Origin: an uncultured Bacteroidota bacterium
Lineage (GTDB): Bacteria; Bacteroidota; Rhodothermia; Balneolales; HLUCCA01
Length of the DNA stretch: 64,000 nt
Assembly: GCA_947085565.1 (NCBI GenBank)
Contig: CAMTWZ010000006.1
Coordinates: 66,207-130,206 of the forward strand
Reading direction: 5' to 3'
In this document: positions 3,658 to 53,934 of the stretch, piece by piece
How the letters are laid out: each line of letters begins with the position of its first letter
How positions within the stretch are numbered: position 1 is the stretch's first letter
Made by a program: the position numbers and the translations under genes
Notes under the pieces: model-generated
The model's input: the letters and a program-made list of their open reading frames with translations, nothing else
What the model was told of the DNA's origin: nothing
Database searches by the model: none

Positions 3658-5433
3658 ATGAAAACGTTATTCCTCACGCCGCTTTTCCTGCTTGCGGCGA
3701 TCAGTCTGAACGCGCAATCGTTCAGCGCCGGACGCGTCTCCGTAACGGTGAAATCCGAGCAGGAAACGGTCGTTCCCGGATCACAAGCCCGGGTCGCTGT
3801 GGTGATGGACATCCAAGACGGATGGCACATCAACTCCCATAAGCCCACCTTGGATTGGTTGATCGGGACCGAGTTGACATTGACCTATCCAGAGGGATTG
3901 ACACAAAGCAGAATCGTCTATCCGCCATTCAAGATTTTCAAATTCGCCTTCGCGGATGATGAACTGGCCGTATATGAAGGGGAAGCGCCGATTTTTCTGA
4001 CGTTGGATATCTCCGCGGAGCTTCCTCCCGGCGCATATGCCGTCGAGGGACGCTTACGCGTTCAGGCCTGCGACGACCAGACCTGTCTTCCGCCCTCCAA
4101 CATCCCCGTGGCCTTCACGGTAACCGTAGGCGATGCGATGGTCGCCTCGAAGGATGGATCGTATTTCGATGGCGCGGCGAGCGGCACTGCCGATGGAGGG
4201 TTCATCACCTTCGACCAAGCCGGTGAACAGAACGCCATCGCGCAGCTCATCGACGAAAGCGGTTTGTTGTGGACATTCATCACCATCTTTTTCATCGGCT
4301 TGGCGCTGAATCTGACGCCCTGCGTGTATCCGATGCTCACGGTCACCGTGTCCATCTTCGGAAACCAGACGGATAGTAACATCCTCCGGGTCTTCTCCAA
4401 AGCCCTGATCTATGTGCTCGGCATCGCCACGATGTACAGCGTTCTGGGTGTGCTGGCGGCCTTGAGCGGTGGCTTGTTCGGTAGCGTCTTGCAATCACCC
4501 TGGGTCTTGTTCGCCATCGGTGTGATGCTTTTCGCGCTGGCACTGAGCTCCTTCGGTGTGTATGAAATCACGCTTCCGTATTGGCTCACCAGCAAACTGG
4601 GAGGAACGCAGTCCACCGGCTTCATCGGCGTGTATCTGTCGGGATTGGTGGTGGGCGTGTTCGCCGCGCCGTGCATCGGTCCGCCGGTGATCGCTTTGTT
4701 GGCCTTCGTAGGCGCCAAAGGGGATGTCTTTTTCGGATTCTGGAGCTTTTTCATCCTCTCGCTCGGACTCGGACTCCCGTATCTCATCCTCGGCACCTTC
4801 AGCGGCCTGCTGACCAAACTTCCCCGTTCCGGCGTGTGGATGATCTGGGTGAAAAAGCTCTTCGGTGTGGTGCTCGTGGGCGTGGCCTTGTTCTACATCG
4901 GTTTGGCGTTCTTCCCGAAACTCACGGTGTGGGTCATTCCTGCGACCTTGCTCATCGGCGGCGTCTATCTCGGATTCATCGAACGAAGCGGCTTTAACCA
5001 ACCACGGTTCCGAACCTTCAAATGGCTCTTGGGTATCGCGGCGATCGTCTTCGGGGTGCACATGTCGAACGTTCTGCTCAAGCCGAGCGTGCAATGGACA
5101 CCCTACACCACCGAAGCGTTCGATGCGGCCCGTGCTGATGGAAAGCCGATCGTGTTGGATTTCTACGCCGATTGGTGCATCCCGTGTCTGGAATTGGACC
5201 GGAGCACCTTCACCGATCCGACCGTGATCGAGACCTTGGAGCCTTATGCGCGGTTCAAAGTGGATCTGACGAATTTCGATTCTCCGGAATCAGAAGCGCT
5301 GCGTCAGCAGTTCGATGTGGCGGGAGTACCGACGATTCTGTTCATTGACGCGAATGGCTTGGAACGGCAAAACTCGAGGGTGATCGGATTCCTTCCTCCT
5401 AAGGAATTTCTGAGTAGGATGGTAGGATGGTAG
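3658..5433 (+). CDS. dsbD: thiol:disulfide interchange protein DsbD (N-terminal domain, membrane core, C-terminal thioredoxin)
   Basis: Signal peptide, a multi-pass core with LNLTPCVYPM and AAPCIGP Cys motifs, and a C-terminal DFYADWCIPC thioredoxin. The last 6 codons and the TAG stop lie inside the 8-nt array. Confidence 0.85.
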   Translation: MKTLFLTPLFLLAAISLNAQSFSAGRVSVTVKSEQETVVPGSQARVAVVMDIQDGWHINSHKPTLDWLIGTELTLTYPEGLTQSRIVYPPFKIFKFAFADDELAVYEGEAPIFLTLDISAELPPGAYAVEGRLRVQACDDQTCLPPSNIPVAFTVTVGDAMVASKDGSYFDGAASGTADGGFITFDQAGEQNAIAQLIDESGLLWTFITIFFIGLALNLTPCVYPMLTVTVSIFGNQTDSNILRVFSKALIYVLGIATMYSVLGVLAALSGGLFGSVLQSPWVLFAIGVMLFALALSSFGVYEITLPYWLTSKLGGTQSTGFIGVYLSGLVVGVFAAPCIGPPVIALLAFVGAKGDVFFGFWSFFILSLGLGLPYLILGTFSGLLTKLPRSGVWMIWVKKLFGVVLVGVALFYIGLAFFPKLTVWVIPATLLIGGVYLGFIERSGFNQPRFRTFKWLLGIAAIVFGVHMSNVLLKPSVQWTPYTTEAFDAARADGKPIVLDFYADWCIPCLELDRSTFTDPTVIETLEPYARFKVDLTNFDSPESEALRQQFDVAGVPTILFIDANGLERQNSRVIGFLPPKEFLSRMVGW

Positions 5434-5439
5434 GATGGT
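5414..5439 (+). repeat. tandem array (GTAGGATG) x3.25, left arm
   Basis: Read directly: units at 5414-5421, 5422-5429 and 5430-5437, plus gt. It encodes SRMVGW-stop of dsbD and abuts the stop codon (5439-5441) of the four-helix-bundle gene. Confidence 0.95.
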
Positions 5440-5789
5440 TACTTCAGAGAGCGACGTAGGAAAAACAGCTGCTTAAGTATGACAACGATGGATGCATTGA
5501 GCTCGTCGTAGGTCGATTTGTCGAGATAACCGAGATCGTGCGACAGGAGTAGTTGATATTCCAATTCCAGTCCGGATCCATGTGCGATTTCTATAAATCG
5601 TTGAAAGTCGCGATCACTGTCACGTGATGATCCTTCGGCGATGTTGCAGGGAATGGACATGCTCGCTCGTCTAACTTGACTCGTGAGCCCATAGAGTTCA
5701 TTCTTGGGAAAATTTGATGAGACCGAATAGATACGTACTGTCAGCGCATGGCTTTCAGACCACACTTTCAATTTCTTATAGTTATTCAT
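5439..5789 (-). CDS. four helix bundle protein (23S rRNA intervening sequence protein / Avd-like family)
   Basis: MNNYKKLKVWSESHALTVRIYSV..FPKNELYGLTSQVRRASMSIPCNIAEGSSR..FQRFIEIAHGSGLELEYQLLLS fits the family pattern. Start set at the internal ATG by parallel with the paralogue at 9395-9766. Confidence 0.85.
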   Translation of the reverse strand: MNNYKKLKVWSESHALTVRIYSVSSNFPKNELYGLTSQVRRASMSIPCNIAEGSSRDSDRDFQRFIEIAHGSGLELEYQLLLSHDLGYLDKSTYDELNASIVVILKQLFFLRRSLK

Positions 5790-5837
5790 TGTGCCCCTTA
5801 GGATGGTGATATCTCTATAGATGCGATAAAGCACGAA

Positions 5838-5865
5838 TTCTTACTCGATTTGCACAGATTTAGGA
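5838..5865 (-). promoter_or_regulatory. conserved leader/promoter motif of the four-helix-bundle cassette (plus-strand TTCTTAC-N7-GCACAGATTTAGGA)
   Basis: The same bipartite 21 conserved nt recur at 9814-9841, 48-49 nt from the ATG in both cases. On the coding strand the motif contains TAAATCTG, one mismatch from TAnnTTTG. Confidence 0.5.
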
Positions 5866-5912
5866 ACGTTCGATATTGAGGTACTAAATACCATCTACTA
5901 ATTACTAATATC

Positions 5913-5952
5913 CATCCTACCATCCTACCATCCTACCATCCTACCATCCTAC
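5913..5952 (+). repeat. tandem array (CATCCTAC) x5, right arm (reverse complement of left arm)
   Basis: Five perfect units at 5913-5952. The last unit contains the stop codon (5949-5951) of the RluA-family gene. Confidence 0.95.
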
Positions 5953-6584: not shown

Positions 6585-6751
6585 GGGAGAAATTCTAAAT
6601 GTTCAATTTTAAAGGTACGGGTCTTGAACCGCGCAGCACTCCCAAACTTAAAATTGTTCATTAATAATTGTCCGCCTGCCACCTTGTCAGCGTATCGCGC
6701 ATGGCACAGGTTTCGCAGTGGGAGTTGCAGAAACACATCAAAAGGAATCCC

Positions 6752-9367
6752 ATGAATCTGAACAAATTCACTGTCAAAGCCCAGGAGGCCGTTCAGGCCG
6801 CGTTGGAATTGGCGGCGGCGCGTTCGCACCAGGCCCTCGACCCCCTGCATCTCTTGTCCGCCTTGGCCAACGACGAGACCGGCGTGGTCCGATCCATCCT
6901 TTCCAAGCTCGAAGTCCCGGTTTCTAGCCTCTCCCGTGCCGTCGATGCCGCGATCTCGCGCCTTCCCGTGGTGCAAGGCGCCGCCGTGTCGGGCTCGTAC
7001 CTGTCGAACGATCTGAAAGCCGTGCTCGACGCCGCGCTCAAGGAAGCCTCCAAGATGGACGATGAGTACGTCAGTTCCGAGCATCTTCTCTTGGCCTTGG
7101 CCGATTCCAAATCCGAAGCGGGGACCCTCCTCAAAGCCGAAAAACTGACCCGCGCCGCGTTGACCAAGGTCATCCTCGAGATCCGCGGTACCCGTAAATC
7201 CGACGATCCGAACGCCGAAACGCAGTACCAATCCCTGAAAAAATATGCGCGCGACCTGAACGAGCTCGCCGAGAAGAACAAGCTCGATCCGGTGATCGGC
7301 CGCGATGGCGAAATCCGACGCGTCATGCAGATCCTCACGCGCCGCACCAAGAACAACCCGGTTTTGGTCGGCGAGCCCGGCGTGGGCAAGACGGCCATCG
7401 CCGAGGGCTTGGCCCTGCGGATCGTGACGGGAGATGTTCCTGAAGGACTCAAAACCAAGCGCATCGTCGCCCTCGACATGGGTGCGCTCGTGGCCGGAAC
7501 CAAGTTCCGTGGCGAATTCGAAGACCGCCTGAAAGCCGTGATCCGCGAAGTGGAAGACTCGAACGGCGAAATCATCCTGTTCATCGACGAAATTCACACC
7601 TTAGTGGGTGCCGGTGCTGCGGAAGGCGCCATGGACGCGGCGAACATCCTCAAACCGAGCCTGGCTCGCGGAGAAATGCGTGCCATCGGGGCCACCACGC
7701 TCACCGAGTATCGCAAGTTCATCGAAAAAGACAAGGCGCTGGAGCGTCGTTTGCAAACCGTTCTCGTGGGCGAGCCGAGCGTCGAAGACACGGTCTCCAT
7801 CCTCCGCGGACTCAAAGAACGGTACGAGCTCCATCACGGCGTGCGCATTTCCGATGCGGCGGTGGTGGCGGCGGCCGAACTCTCGCATCGCTACATCAGC
7901 GACCGCTTCCTTCCAGACAAAGCCATCGATCTGATCGATGAGGCGGCCTCGCGCTTGCGTTTGCAGATCGATTCGATGCCGGAAGAGCTGGATCATGTGG
8001 GTCGTCAAATCCGTCAGTTGGAAATCGAGCGGGAGGCCTTGAAGCGGGAAAAAGACACGTCGCGTCAGGAGCCGATCGAGCGGGAACTGGCAAATCTTCA
8101 GGAATCGCACAATGCCTTGCGCGGACAGTGGGACCGTGAAAAAAGCCTTATCCAGCGCATCCGCGAGCTGAAACTGGCCATCGAAACGGCGCGCAACGAG
8201 GCCGACAAAGCCGAGCGAGCCGGCAATTTCGAGCGCGTGGCTGAACTGCGGTACGGAACCATCATCCAGCTTGAAAAAGAGCTGAATGAAGCGCAATCCA
8301 CCGACAACATCATGCTCAAGGAAGAGGTGTATGCCGAGGACATCGCCGACATCGTGTCGCGCTGGACGGGCGTTCCGGTCAAGAAAATGCTGCAGAGCGA
8401 ACGGAATAAGTTATTGGTGCTGGAGGAGGACCTTCACAAAAGAGTCGTGGGCCAACAGCCGGCGATTGAAGCCGTGGCGAATGCTGTGAGGAGGAGTCGC
8501 GCCGGGTTGCAGGACGAAAGCAAACCCATCGGCTCGTTCATCTTCCTGGGCTCCACTGGAGTCGGGAAAACCGAGCTGGCGCGGGCCTTGGCCGAATCGC
8601 TGTTCAACGACGAGCATGCCATGATCCGCATCGACATGAGCGAATACATGGAGAAACACAGCGTGTCGCGCTTGGTGGGCGCGCCTCCGGGCTATGTAGG
8701 GTATGATGAAGGCGGACAACTGACCGAAGCGGTGCGTCGGCGTCCGTATTCCGTGCTCTTGCTCGACGAAATCGAAAAAGCGCATCCGGATGTGTTCAAC
8801 ATCCTGCTTCAGGTGTTGGACGACGGTCGCCTCACCGACTCGAAAGGAGTGACGGTCAACTTCCGCAACACCATCATCATCATGACCTCGAATCTGGGCT
8901 CGCAGCTCATCCAGCGGAAGATCGATGAATCTGGCGGCAAGATGGATGCGATCGTGTACGACGAGCTTCAGGCGGCGCTGTTGGCGCAGTTGCGGCAGAC
9001 CATCCGTCCGGAGTTCCTGAACCGTATCGACGACGTGATCGTCTTCCATCCGTTGTCGAAAGAGCATCTGCGGTTCGTGGTCGACATCCAACTCACGAAC
9101 GTGCTGGCGCGCCTGGCCAAACAGGGGATTTCCCTGCATGTGCCGGAAAACGTCAAAGATTGGCTTGCGGTGAAGGGGTATGACGCCACGTACGGAGCGC
9201 GGCCGCTCAAACGGCTCATTCAGACGCAGGTGATCAACAAACTGGCCACGATGATGCTGCTGCGCGACGGCGAGTCGAAAGCCGAGTACGATGTACGCAT
9301 CGCGCGCGACGGAGAGCGGCTCGAATTCGCCGAAGTGTTCGATGATGTGAGCGCGTGGGCGGAATAG
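6752..9367 (+). CDS. clpB: ATP-dependent chaperone ClpB
   Basis: Two AAA+ modules ([16 protein letters not shown]), a long coiled-coil middle domain, and a Clp N-domain beginning MNLNKFT. Start set at ATG 6752 rather than the upstream alternative codon at 6668. Confidence 0.95.
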
Positions 9368-9369
9368 GA

Positions 9370-9397
9370 GATGCTAGATGCGGGATGCGAGATGCTA
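9370..9397 (+). repeat. tandem array (GATGCNN) x4, left arm
   Basis: Units gatgcta, gatgcgg, gatgcga, gatgcta, starting 3 nt after the clpB stop. It overlaps the stop codon of the four-helix-bundle gene at 9395. Confidence 0.9.
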
Positions 9398-9766
9398 TCG
9401 ACGTTTGGGAATATCTGACTCCACTTTTTTCATGAAGTTGATCAGCATGGACCGCAGATGATTCACTATTCCTGCTTCTCTATCCAAATCATCATTCGAA
9501 ATATAACCTAGGTCGCAGGCAATGATCAGATGACATTCGACTTCATTAGCGGAACCTAAAGCGATTTCAAGAAAACGATAAAAATCATTCGCTGATCTTC
9601 GCGACGCACCTTCCGCTATGTTCGCAGCGATAGTTGCCACTGCTCTGCATAATTGATTTGTCAGTCGGAAACGCTCCTTAGTAGGAAAATGGTCCGCTAA
9701 TAAGTAAATCTCCTTCGTCATGGTTCGAGACATTTGCCATATAGACAACTGTTTGAAATCTCTCAT
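9395..9766 (-). CDS. four helix bundle protein (23S rRNA intervening sequence protein / Avd-like family), second paralogue
   Basis: MRDFKQLSIWQMSRTMTKEIYLL..FPTKERFRLTNQLCRAVATIAANIAEGASRRS..FYRFLEIALGSANEVECHLII fits the family. The start at 9766 puts the conserved leader motif at the same distance as in cassette 1; 9787 is also possible. Confidence 0.85.
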   Translation of the reverse strand: MRDFKQLSIWQMSRTMTKEIYLLADHFPTKERFRLTNQLCRAVATIAANIAEGASRRSANDFYRFLEIALGSANEVECHLIIACDLGYISNDDLDREAGIVNHLRSMLINFMKKVESDIPKRR

Positions 9767-9813
9767 GTAATTCTCCTTATGGTTCATAATGTTAGGAGGC
9801 CATTTTTGAGGAT

Positions 9814-9841
9814 TTCTTACAAAATCAGCACAGATTTAGGA
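9814..9841 (-). promoter_or_regulatory. conserved leader/promoter motif, copy 2 (TTCTTAC-N7-GCACAGATTTAGGA)
   Basis: Identical 7-nt and 14-nt blocks with the same 7-nt spacer length as 5838-5865. Confidence 0.5.
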
Positions 9842-9857
9842 TAAATAGTCTTGCTTC

Positions 9858-9892
9858 TAGCATCCCGCATCAAGCATCCCGCATCCCGCATC
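9858..9892 (+). repeat. tandem array (NNGCATC) x5, right arm (reverse complement of left arm)
   Basis: Units tagcatc, ccgcatc, aagcatc, ccgcatc, ccgcatc. The last unit overlaps the stop codon (9891-9893) of the OMP gene. Confidence 0.9.
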
Positions 9893-10442
9893 AAAATCTT
9901 AAGGTCACCCCGATATGAAATCTACCTTTCGCTTCACGGAATTTTTGCGCGGCGGAATCGACATCCTGGAAGTTCGAGAAGCGGTATTCCATATACGGTT
10001 CCAAGATCGGAAGCGCGGAAATCGAGACCCCTAACAATCCATAGAAATATGCGGTGTTGTTCTGCTGGCTGGCGGCTCCATCCGGCCTGAAATCCCATTG
10101 TTCGGCACCGGCTCCAACACCTGCGTAGGGATTGAAGAGGCCGAATCGGAGTCCGGCGAGCACGGTTCCGCCGAAATCATAGGCTTCGATGGTGGACGGT
10201 TCCGGACTGAAGATCGGCAGGAATTGCGGTTCGTATTCCGTGTCTTTGAAGTAGCTGGCGTGGATGCGGGTCCGCAGGAAAATGACGGGAATGCGGAAGA
10301 CATCCCGCTCGAACTGAATGCCGTAGCCGTTGGCAGGGGCTTGGTCGCGGCGTTCAAAACTGGCGCCGACGCCCCACTGGGCAAGGGCGGTTTCGGGAAA
10401 GGTGGCAAGGCCGATCAGTGTAAGAAGAAGAAGTTTTTTCAT
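9891..10442 (-). CDS. small outer-membrane beta-barrel protein
   Basis: Signal peptide MKKLLLLTLIGLATFPETALAQ, alternating Gly/aromatic beta-strand pattern, and a terminal F (..GVTLRF). Start set at the ATG that gives the signal peptide. Confidence 0.7.
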   Translation of the reverse strand: MKKLLLLTLIGLATFPETALAQWGVGASFERRDQAPANGYGIQFERDVFRIPVIFLRTRIHASYFKDTEYEPQFLPIFSPEPSTIEAYDFGGTVLAGLRFGLFNPYAGVGAGAEQWDFRPDGAASQQNNTAYFYGLLGVSISALPILEPYMEYRFSNFQDVDSAAQKFREAKGRFHIGVTLRF

Positions 10443-10648
10443 GAGGTATATCATTCTGGTTACGCCCATGAAAACCGCGGAAATGAAAAAATGTTGCCGA
10501 TCAGGGGTCAATTTTTGATGAAGTGACGACGCGTAAGAACTCCATTTCGAGTTGTGGATCACCCCAAATCATGGGTGCGAGGTATTCCTGAATTTAAAAT
10601 TTATCATTTAAAATTCGTCTAGCCGTATCTTTACGCCTCGATTGGAAT

Positions 10649-10734
10649 GCCGCAGTGGTGAAATGGTAGACACGTTGGACTTAAAATCCAATGAGCCTCA
10701 AAAGCTCGTACCGGTTCGAGTCCGGTCTGCGGTA
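10649..10734 (+). tRNA. tRNA-Leu (anticodon UAA), class II with long variable arm
   Basis: Hand-folded: acceptor GCCGCAG/CTGCGGT, 3-bp D stem, anticodon stem ttgga/tccaa with loop cTTAAaa, an 18-nt variable arm, and T arm accgg-ttcgagt-ccggt. CCA is not encoded. Confidence 0.9.
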
Positions 10735-18577: not shown

Positions 18578-18709
18578 GATGGTAGTTAGTAGCTGGTAGT
18601 TGGTAATTAGTAGTTAGTAGTTGGTTGTTGGTTGTTGTTTGTTGTGGTTTCGAATTTCAGATTCCACCCATCTGTACCACAAACAACTAACCACAAACAA
18701 CTAACTACC
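18578..18709. repeat. low-complexity inverted array pair forming an imperfect long hairpin (no cargo gene)
   Basis: The left side is 7-8-nt units (ggtagtta, ggtagtt, ggttgtt ...) running to gttgtttgttgtggt. A 27-nt loop follows, then the right arm accacaaacaactaaccacaaacaactaactacc. The pair spans from the pgm start codon to the stop codon of the GH47-like gene. Confidence 0.8.
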
Positions 18710-53225: not shown

Positions 53226-53828
53226 ATGTGGCGTTTAACCATCTCAAAACTCACGCATTCTTTTGGCTCGAAACCGGTTTTCGAACCGTTGGAATTCGAT
53301 GCGGACATCCGCCGACTCGGCATTTCAGGAGCGAACGGCGCCGGAAAATCAACCTTGATGCGAATTCTCGCCGGATTGATGGAGCCCTCATCCGGCACCT
53401 TCGCATGGACCAAAGACGAAGTCTCGGTCGTGCCGGCCGACATCCGCCACAACCTCGGTTTTTCCGCTCCTTATCTGGGCATCTATCCGGAACTCACCGT
53501 TCGCGAGAATCTTGACTTCGTAGCTTCCTTGCGCGGATTGGGAGCACCGGAAGTGGCCACCGCCGCCGAACGTCTCGGGATGTCCGATTTCATGGAACAG
53601 CGTGCAGGGTCGTGTTCCTCGGGTCAGCAGCAGCGCTTGCGATTGGCCACATCCATCGTCCATTCACCTGGGTTACTTTTCTTGGACGAACCCGGCACCA
53701 ATCTCGATATCTCAGGGTTCGACACAGTGGCCGCACTCGTTAGAGATTGGCCCGGATCCGTGGTCTTGGCCAGCAATCAATCCGACGAACTGAGTTGGTG
53801 TTTGGAACGGTTGACGGTTGACGGTTGA
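53226..53828 (+). CDS. ABC transporter ATP-binding protein (short, CcmA-like size; no permease adjacent)
   Basis: Walker A GANGAGKST, signature CSSGQQQRL, and Walker B LLFLDEP. The last codons and the TGA lie inside the (CGGTTGA)n array. Confidence 0.8.
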   Translation: MWRLTISKLTHSFGSKPVFEPLEFDADIRRLGISGANGAGKSTLMRILAGLMEPSSGTFAWTKDEVSVVPADIRHNLGFSAPYLGIYPELTVRENLDFVASLRGLGAPEVATAAERLGMSDFMEQRAGSCSSGQQQRLRLATSIVHSPGLLFLDEPGTNLDISGFDTVAALVRDWPGSVVLASNQSDELSWCLERLTVDG

Positions 53829-53832
53829 CGGT
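53808..53832 (+). repeat. tandem array (CGGTTGA) x3.5
   Basis: Read directly. It encodes LTVDG-stop of the ABC ATPase. Confidence 0.9.
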
Positions 53833-53835
53833 TTT

Positions 53836-53934
53836 CACGCTTCCACGCTTTCACGCTTTCACGCTTTCACGCTTTCACGCTTCCACGCTTCCACGCTTTC
53901 ACGCTTTCACGCTTCCACGCTTTCACGCTTCCAC
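53836..53934 (+). repeat. tandem array (CACGCTTY) x12.4
   Basis: Twelve contiguous 8-nt units (Y pattern C T T T T C C T T C T C) plus cac, ending exactly at the ATG of the M29 aminopeptidase gene. Confidence 0.95.

Follow-up and report, generated by a model that had tools for sequence, protein, structure and literature searches.

A repeat-armed PF05635 cassette between clpB and an outer-membrane protein gene, a probable intergenic counterpart of the rRNA intervening sequence

Genes of the PF05635/TIGR02436 family are among the commonest small 'hypothetical' genes in Bacteroidota, Cyanobacteria, Acidobacteriota, Xanthomonas and others, and to our knowledge the only contexts described for them are the 23S rRNA intervening sequence (IVS) and diversity-generating retroelements (DGRs). 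In Coxiella burnetii, the IVS is 428 nt long, lies in helix 45 of the 23S rRNA and contains an S23p (PF05635) open reading frame (ORF). Its ends form a 28-bp terminal stem that RNase III cuts in the middle, and its 5' region holds two to three tandem GACAGAT heptamers plus one degenerate unit, in a number that varies among strains (PMC4990558). Here we describe a gene of this family that is enclosed by inverted arrays of 7-nt units between clpB and an outer-membrane beta-barrel protein (OMP) gene. The locus lies in a 64,000-nt stretch from an uncultured Bacteroidota bacterium (GCA_947085565.1, contig CAMTWZ010000006.1, positions 66,207 to 130,206), hereafter the window, which also holds a second element of this kind, cassette 1. 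We propose, with a probability of roughly 60%, that the clpB–OMP element, cassette 2, belongs as an intergenic representative to a widespread class of repeat-armed PF05635 cassettes and is the counterpart outside rRNA of the S23p-type IVS, with arms that are carried and dynamic and a transcript made by the host and processed by RNase III.

Arrays of 7-nt units have been described separately from this gene family. Rehm et al. counted ∼186 arrays of the G-quadruplex-forming heptamer GGGAATC in Xanthomonas, with 70–75 convergent pairs among them, and linked them to no gene (PMC4692102), and TAACTGA arrays occur in Beggiatoaceae, cyanobacteria and Bacteroidetes (PMC4679880). Neither paper ties a gene family to its arrays, and four helix, S23 and intervening sequence are mentioned in neither. 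PF05635 also includes Avd-like proteins (PMC10053308), and the structure of the related XCC0516 (2GSC) is described as a homopentamer built of four-helix bundles (PMC4990558, with reference to Lin et al. 2006). In the literature searched, we found no paper stating a general association of gene and arrays, although one may exist elsewhere.

Arms and cargo at the clpB–OMP junction

Cassette 2 is 523 bp long (539 bp for cassette 1) and, with its neighbours, is composed as follows:

6668–9367, plus strand: flanking clpB, convergent with the OMP gene
9370–9397: left arm, on the side of the cargo stop, (GATGCNN)x4: GATGCTA GATGCGG GATGCGA GATGCTA
9395–9766, minus strand: cargo gene, four-helix-bundle protein of 123 aa, PF05635/TIGR02436
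9773–9778, minus strand: Shine-Dalgarno-like AAGGAG, 6 nt 5' of the ATG at 9766
9812–9839, minus strand: leader motif CTAAATCTGTGC-N6-TGTAAGAAAT, directly inside the promoter-side arm
9858–9892: promoter-side (right) arm, (NNGCATC)x5: TAGCATC CCGCATC AAGCATC CCGCATC CCGCATC
9891–10469, minus strand: flanking OMP gene (192-aa form, P0241), sharing the cargo's strand here

The left arm begins 3 nt past the clpB stop, which ends at 9367, and the cargo stop codon (9395–9397) lies within it. At the other end, the right arm shares 2 nt with the OMP stop codon (9891–9893), and degenerate units extend it back to 9849. Tandem Repeats Finder (TRF) called period-7 arrays at 9368–9395 (4.0 copies) and 9859–9892 (4.9 copies). 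The arms, the enclosed four-helix-bundle ORF, the sizes of 523 and 539 bp and the boundaries had all been stated in an earlier reading of the bare sequence (the original prediction), and they are borne out by the sequence, TRF and the PF05635/TIGR02436 matches. The two arms pair as inverted repeats over 28 nt at 82% identity; the best register gives 95% over 20 nt, and the longest pairing spans 37 nt at 81%. The three-unit pattern GATGCNNGATGCNNGATGC, with at most one mismatch, has six matches in the window, every one of them within the two arms, against 0.04 ± 0.20 expected in the shuffled window; six was reached in none of 100 shuffles. Two independent assemblies (ERR3478703 and ERR3478710) are 100% identical to window positions 8800–10700, arms included, and the arrays are therefore not an artefact of assembly, a doubt that the original prediction had itself raised. 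As RNA, the arm duplex is predicted to reach about −53 kcal/mol in the sense and −48 kcal/mol in the antisense transcript (range −48 to −54), and the predicted fold of the whole cassette has a z-score of −4.15, with the arms paired in the minimum-free-energy structure.

The cargo is a clear member of the family. The ORF at 9395–9787 (minus strand) matches PF05635 with an E-value of 1.8e-32 and 112 bits (curated cut-off 33.8) and TIGR02436 with 3.2e-32 and 111 bits (cut-off 24). An in-frame ATG upstream, at 9787, would give a 130-aa form, for which no exact match was found in the protein collection, where the 123-aa form occurs; as all close homologues have 123 aa, the real start is probably the ATG at 9766. 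The protein matches the XCC0516 structure (PDB 2GSC) with an E-value of 7e-20 and is 37% identical to the cargo of cassette 1; PADLOC and PHROGs gave no match for either cargo. The ratio of nonsynonymous to synonymous substitution rates (dN/dS) against orthologues is 0.05–0.11, a sign of purifying selection that points to a functional protein. As a pentamer-forming relative of the DGR protein Avd, it may bind nucleic acid.

Conservation extends beyond the protein. Across six orthologues, the 3'-terminal ∼45 nt of the cargo's reading frame (9398–9445, minus strand) are invariant at the nucleotide level while other synonymous sites are saturated, and the leader AAATCTGTGC...TGTAAGA is likewise invariant despite this saturation elsewhere, with AAATCTGTGC and TGTAAG of the leader motif unchanged throughout. 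The AGGAG of the Shine-Dalgarno-like site shows no variation in the same six sequences. A variant of the leader motif is also found in cassette 1 (about 5846–5870) and in the P0010 lineage of cargos. In the six orthologous interiors, RNAalifold predicts only pairing of the invariant AUCUG and CAGAU, which is uninformative. A promoter and terminator scan of 9200–10100 called nothing, and no sigma-70-type promoter.

Arms among close relatives and across phyla

The nearest cargos, which are 76–90% identical, were located on their own contigs. Whereas the window has 4 + 5 arm units, there are ∼7 + 9 in L001, ∼19 + 14 in L002 and ∼8 + 14 in L003, and an identical protein in two samples is accompanied by 5 GACGGTA units in one and 2 in the other. 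The comparison of copy numbers that the original prediction had suggested thus shows arms that expand and contract. The orientation of the cassette differs as well. In L001, the sequences corresponding to window positions 8600–9396 (clpB) and 9849–10499 (OMP) align forward and those of 9369–9892 align reversed, and in L091/L092 the cassette at clpB–OMP is oriented as in L001. At a second junction, between FtsX and FUR, which the window does not contain, one orientation is found in L002 and L087–L090 and the opposite in L003/L005. The inversion breakpoints fall within the arms. Moreover, the flanks of L091 are 82–91% identical to the window, and its interior is 68.6% identical to that of the window and 81.6% to that of L087 from the FtsX–FUR junction. 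Cassette phylogeny thus departs from location; sequence has been transferred from one array-bounded site to another. Together, these alignments show in-place inversion of the cassette and an exchange of interiors between array-bounded sites, both by recombination in the arms.

The unit family moves with the cargo. GATGCNN units accompany the cargo lineage at both clpB–OMP and FtsX–FUR, the related GACGGTA is found at an EpsH junction, and the P0010 cargo (67% identical) has GACGGTA arms. One unit family staying with a cargo lineage at two or three junctions argues that arms are carried and not locally made, and this comparison of junctions shows that the arms, by all appearances, are part of the cassette and pass down together with the cargo lineage.

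Cassette 1 and further arrays in the window are as follows:

5414–5952, minus strand: cassette 1, 539 bp, with the architecture of cassette 2
5414–5439: left arm of cassette 1, (GTAGGATG)x3.2
5439–5789, minus strand: PF05635 gene of cassette 1
5912–5952: right arm of cassette 1, (CCATCCTA)x5.1
18578–18705: inverted heptamer pair without a gene (an 'empty' version), TGGTAGT/TGGTTGT against ACCACAAACAACTA, with a spacer of ∼30 nt
53807–53934, plus strand: solitary direct arrays, (ACGGTTG)x4 followed by (TTTCACGC)x13, between ABC ATPase and M29 peptidase genes

Cassette 1 is flanked by dsbD (plus strand; its stop, 5431–5433, lies inside the arm) and an RluA-family gene (minus strand). Its octamer, when rotated, is GATGGTAG, that is, GATGGTA+G, and in orthologues of cassette 2, GATGGTA/TACCATC units are interspersed with GATGCNN/GAAGCNN units within the arms. 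To judge by these units, the arms of cassettes 1 and 2 are related, both being of the GATG(G/C)NN type, and the original view that the two arm sequences are unrelated does not hold. The gene-less pair at 18578–18705 occupies the entire gap between GH47 and phosphoglucomutase genes, both on the minus strand, with a predicted fold of −39 to −46 kcal/mol. The arrays at 53807–53934 overlap the 3' end of the ABC ATPase gene and finish 1 nt before the start of the M29 peptidase gene; no inverted partner was found for them in the window, and their ACGGTTG unit corresponds to that of the arms (GACGGTT/GACGGTA) in the P0010-lineage cassette (L094/L095).

To place the cassette in a wider context, one genome per species was scanned with a 34-member family alignment, which yielded 80 loci from Bacteroidota, Acidobacteriota, Planctomycetota, Chloroflexota, Cyanobacteria, Verrucomicrobiota, Proteobacteria and others. 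A short-period array (period 5–14, mostly 7) lies within 500 bp of 81 of 93 family genes, and arrays number 1.45 per kb up to 300 bp from these genes but 0.157 per kb in the remainder of the same loci, a ∼9-fold difference in density. Near the family genes of L007–L086, period 7 accounts for 95 arrays, period 8 for 21 and periods 6 and 9 for 4 each. Inverted complementarity between upstream and downstream sequence lies above the 99th percentile of controls shifted in position in 68% of cases and above the 95th in 85%. The units of the two arms are reverse complements of each other (at least 6 of 7 positions matching) in 66% of cassettes, compared with 4.7% between different cassettes and 8.5% in direct orientation, and the paired arms have a median length of 33.5 nt and 83% identity. 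The arrangement is thus no coincidence of one locus, as had been expected from the two cassettes alone, but recurs around most relatives in many phyla. Periods that are not divisible by three predominate near the four-helix-bundle genes; stop or start codons built into the units showed no clear excess over shuffled units.

The units themselves vary by lineage (AGCTATC, AGCATTC, GGTTTTC, CAGGGAA and others), and their similarity correlates with cargo identity (Mantel r 0.24, p ≤ 0.0005). Among cassettes of the same unit family, own arms match each other better than arms across cassettes in 21 of 31 cases (p = 0.001). This shows that the arms of one cassette co-evolve, and it counts in favour of the original interpretation. 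Two other traits noted at cassette 2 do not hold in general. The convergent junction is real at clpB/OMP, but among 71 loci that could be scored against both neighbours, the cargo is co-directional in 60, antisense in 6, convergent in 4 and divergent in 1. Similarly, the promoter-side arm is the longer one here (5 against 4 units), whereas only 26 of 51 cassettes have the longer arm upstream. Upstream array and start codon are separated by a median of 31.5 nt.

Individual loci link the cassette to previously described arrays and structures. On a finished plasmid of Calothrix PCC 7716, a family gene lies between inverted arrays, and on one of Nostoc PCC 7120, arrays with unlike units stand on both sides of the gene. 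In X. campestris (GCA_035012225.1; L096 1921–2375), an XCC0516-like gene is situated between accB and accC, with GGGAATC x4 upstream and NATTCCC units downstream. This places the solved structure and the published repeat class as parts of one cassette, in an essential operon. The upstream GGGAATC array seems to overlap the 5' end of this ORF. At L072 (1108–1583), a GxxExxY gene (TIGR04256, E-value 6.7e-46) lies between the inverted octamers CGCAGAGA and TCTCTGCG, 1.4 kb from a four-helix-bundle cassette, which indicates that repeat-armed packaging is not limited to one cargo family.

Several further features were seen around these loci. In L091/L092 (599–1841), the OMP gene is internally deleted (108 aa left) and a YhaV/PrlF toxin–antitoxin pair lies between the OMP and methyltransferase genes; these contigs start 178 nt upstream of the cargo gene, at most ∼40 nt from the outer edge of the upstream arm array. 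Octamer arrays of the cassette-1 type (AGGATGGT / ATCCTACC) adjoin an M17 peptidase gene in L002 1–145, as an inverted pair around ∼90 nt of non-coding sequence, and in L003 7540–7820, where a single array (CCATCCTA) was seen; neither has an Rfam match. In the window, (AATTTAA)x3.6 lies at 10591–10615, upstream of the OMP gene and beside a tRNA gene (10649–10734, plus strand), both of which are kept in L001, and a neighbouring gene encodes a Por_Secre_tail domain of the type IX secretion system (T9SS), which points to a bacterium of the FCB group.

Proposed processing and alternative explanations

The cassette we propose would comprise a PF05635 gene, its short leader and its ribosome-binding site, bounded by inverted arrays of 7-nt, sometimes 8-nt, units. 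Such cassettes are probably transcribed from host promoters, as they lie mostly in sense orientation in co-directional gene strings with ∼30 nt from array to start, a gap whose median leaves little room for a promoter. In a read-through transcript, the arms would pair into a duplex of ∼30–40 bp with the cargo looped out, and RNase III would cut this duplex as it does in the Coxiella IVS, leaving the flanking host messages usable and setting the cargo message free. At the convergent clpB/OMP junction, either orientation is sense to one of the neighbours, which would explain why both are found there. Transcription driven by the host is what we infer from this sense bias, and processing of the arm duplex by RNase III from the analogy with the IVS.

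Several results weigh against this proposal. Mismatches in the arms comprise 82 of G·U and 84 of A·C type in the sense transcript, and given this lack of a G·U bias, the complementarity could come from copying at the DNA level rather than from selection for an RNA stem. For the six orthologous cassette interiors, RNAalifold gave a covariation term of +2.17 and hence no covariation support, and in Rfam searches of the window, L002 and L003 at gathering thresholds, one tRNA was the only hit and the cassette matched no family. Neither a clean empty site nor a target-site duplication was found around cassette 2, so that insertion at clpB–OMP is not directly demonstrated; no direct repeat is evident outside the arms, and an empty-site search through OMP orthologues returned 100%-identical matches from the same genome and relatives of 83% and 49% identity that are not syntenic at the junction. 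In addition, the survey was seeded with relatives 35–52% identical to the cargo and covers the TIGR02436-like part of PF05635. Finally, a metagenome scan for (GATGCNN)x4 gave 80 loci (L099–L178), none of which has a family gene within 900 nt; 51 of these arrays are solitary, 14 form short hairpins, 1 forms a short hairpin of reverse polarity and 12 lie at contig ends. Being this abundant without the gene, GATGCNN arrays are not specific to cassettes and might pre-exist at their sites. The 14 short hairpins have 5'-GATGC...GCATC-3' polarity and only 1 the reverse, and at L107 the spacers on either side of a RadC-like gene contain GATGCTC-type arrays.

Gene and arrays are therefore associated in one direction only: nearly all family genes have arms, and most arrays have no gene. 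The original prediction had regarded arrays that are equally common without the gene and an inverted partner as damaging; this is partly borne out, as GATGCNN arrays are common without either, although arrays are still ∼9 times denser beside family genes. Such one-sidedness fits a relation of autonomous to non-autonomous elements or, alternatively, homing into pre-existing hairpins. The latter would mean that inverted array hairpins are slippage-made, general intergenic features of array-rich hosts, serving as terminators or processing signals, and that four-helix-bundle genes and other small selfish genes home into their loops. We regard this as possible, if on balance improbable. It would account for the GATGCNN arrays that mostly lack a family gene, for the gene-less hairpin (18578–18705) and solitary arrays (53807–53934) of the window, for inverted pairs without a gene at related loci (L002 1–145, L018, L042 and L076), for the GxxExxY gene as a different cargo between octamers at L072, for the OMP junction, where the interior was replaced and the site retained, and for the ∼70 convergent GGGAATC pairs of Xanthomonas that are linked to no gene (PMC4692102). 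However, the heptamer arms of Coxiella lie in helix 45 within the 23S rRNA gene, where no host array can have been present beforehand (PMC4990558), the unit family accompanies the cargo lineage from junction to junction, similar units go with similar cargos, and the 9-fold density of arrays at family genes was measured against the remainder of the same loci. The autonomous relation might go further still: by analogy with RAYT–REPIN systems, the four-helix-bundle pentamer would recognize the heptamer of its own arms, and cassettes with the gene would be the autonomous partners of gene-less arrays and hairpins. Covariation of cargo and unit, gene-less arrays that share the unit of nearby cassette arms (15% compared with 1.6% under the null) and the Xanthomonas arrays at the XCC0516-like gene are compatible with this idea without proving it, and we consider it doubtful.

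That arms are made or selected in place by slippage, with compensatory changes and no transmitted terminal repeat, was the explanation first offered for this locus. Copy number does vary widely among orthologues and differs even where the protein is identical, the two arms are unlike at their degenerate positions, and own arms match better than those of other cassettes. Yet the GATG(C/G)NN family stays with the cargo lineage at clpB–OMP and FtsX–FUR, with the related GACGGTA at EpsH, the unit of cassette 1 is a one-base variant of that family, and cargo and unit are correlated. Together with the Coxiella arms within 23S rRNA, the passage of one unit family across junctions and the Mantel r of 0.24 speak against the claim that arms are not carried, and local slippage now seems unlikely. 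Inversion could also be a programmed switch, in which the arms serve as regulated flipping sites for the cargo or for read-through into the neighbours, as in invertons. Both orientations do occur among relatives at each of the two junctions, but no recombinase gene lies beside either cassette, two independent samples share the orientation of the window, the inversions separate genomes that are only ∼85% identical, and 60 sense against 6 antisense cargos over 71 loci would not be expected under free switching; we therefore hold such a switch to be very improbable. A role of the cargo as the Avd accessory protein of a DGR, suggested by the Avd-like proteins in PF05635 (PMC10053308), is hardly credible here, given that the neighbours of cassettes 1 and 2 are dsbD, rluA, clpB, OMP and methyltransferase genes, that neither cassette has a reverse transcriptase or a template/variable repeat pair beside it and that PADLOC and PHROGs gave no matches. 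Overall, we favour the carried, repeat-armed PF05635 cassette.

Significance and comparison with known systems

These data suggest that the rRNA IVS is a special case of a general repeat-armed cassette, which can lie between operons or inside them, as at accB–accC. They also suggest that the arms are active, in that unit numbers change, cassettes invert and cargos swap between sites, and that some unexplained heptanucleotide arrays, in Xanthomonas and in similar form on cyanobacterial plasmids, are arms of these cassettes. Three separate observations in the literature would thereby be tied together, and a culturable organism with a solved structure (XCC0516) offers a handle for tests. Should the pentamer indeed recognize its own heptamer, the family would be the missing cause of the heptanucleotide excess seen as GGGAATC in Xanthomonas, as short tandemly repeated repetitive (STRR) sequences in cyanobacteria and as TAACTGA in Beggiatoa.

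Like the Xanthomonas GGGAATC, TAACTGA and cyanobacterial STRR arrays, the arms are intergenic period-7 arrays of variable length near gene ends, and those of cassette 2 have the 7-nt units, variable copy number and frequently convergent pairing by which intergenic heptanucleotide simple sequence repeats are recognized; unlike the cassette, the known arrays mostly enclose no gene. With DGR Avd and XCC0516, the cargo shares a protein superfamily, but in contrast to Avd, its gene stands alone between housekeeping genes, with no adjacent reverse transcriptase or template repeat. REPIN–RAYT systems and MITEs (miniature transposable elements with inverted repeats) consist of many short inverted-repeat hairpins without a gene and a few gene-bearing copies with the same repeats, and they too are intergenic and located at gene ends. 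The cassette differs in its four-helix-bundle cargo, which has no known catalytic motif and is not a Y1 transposase, in its arms, which are tandem arrays of a short unit instead of a fixed palindrome, and in that no target-site duplication was seen.

The closest likeness is to the S23p-type IVS of Coxiella burnetii and Leptospira (PMC4990558), which is regarded as a selfish element. Unlike that IVS, cassette 2 lies between protein-coding genes (clpB and OMP) and not in helix 25 or 45 of 23S rRNA, its class has longer and far more variable arrays (4 to ∼19 units), and in-place inversion and cargo exchange are seen, while RNase III cleavage of the cassette is proposed by analogy. The cassette cargo is also under strong purifying selection, whereas the Coxiella IVS ORF is decaying. 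In common, both are elements of ∼430–520 bp that enclose a PF05635 ORF between terminal inverted repeats, with a stem of ∼28 bp or more, and the tandem heptamers of variable number in Coxiella correspond to the period-7 arms of cassette 2.

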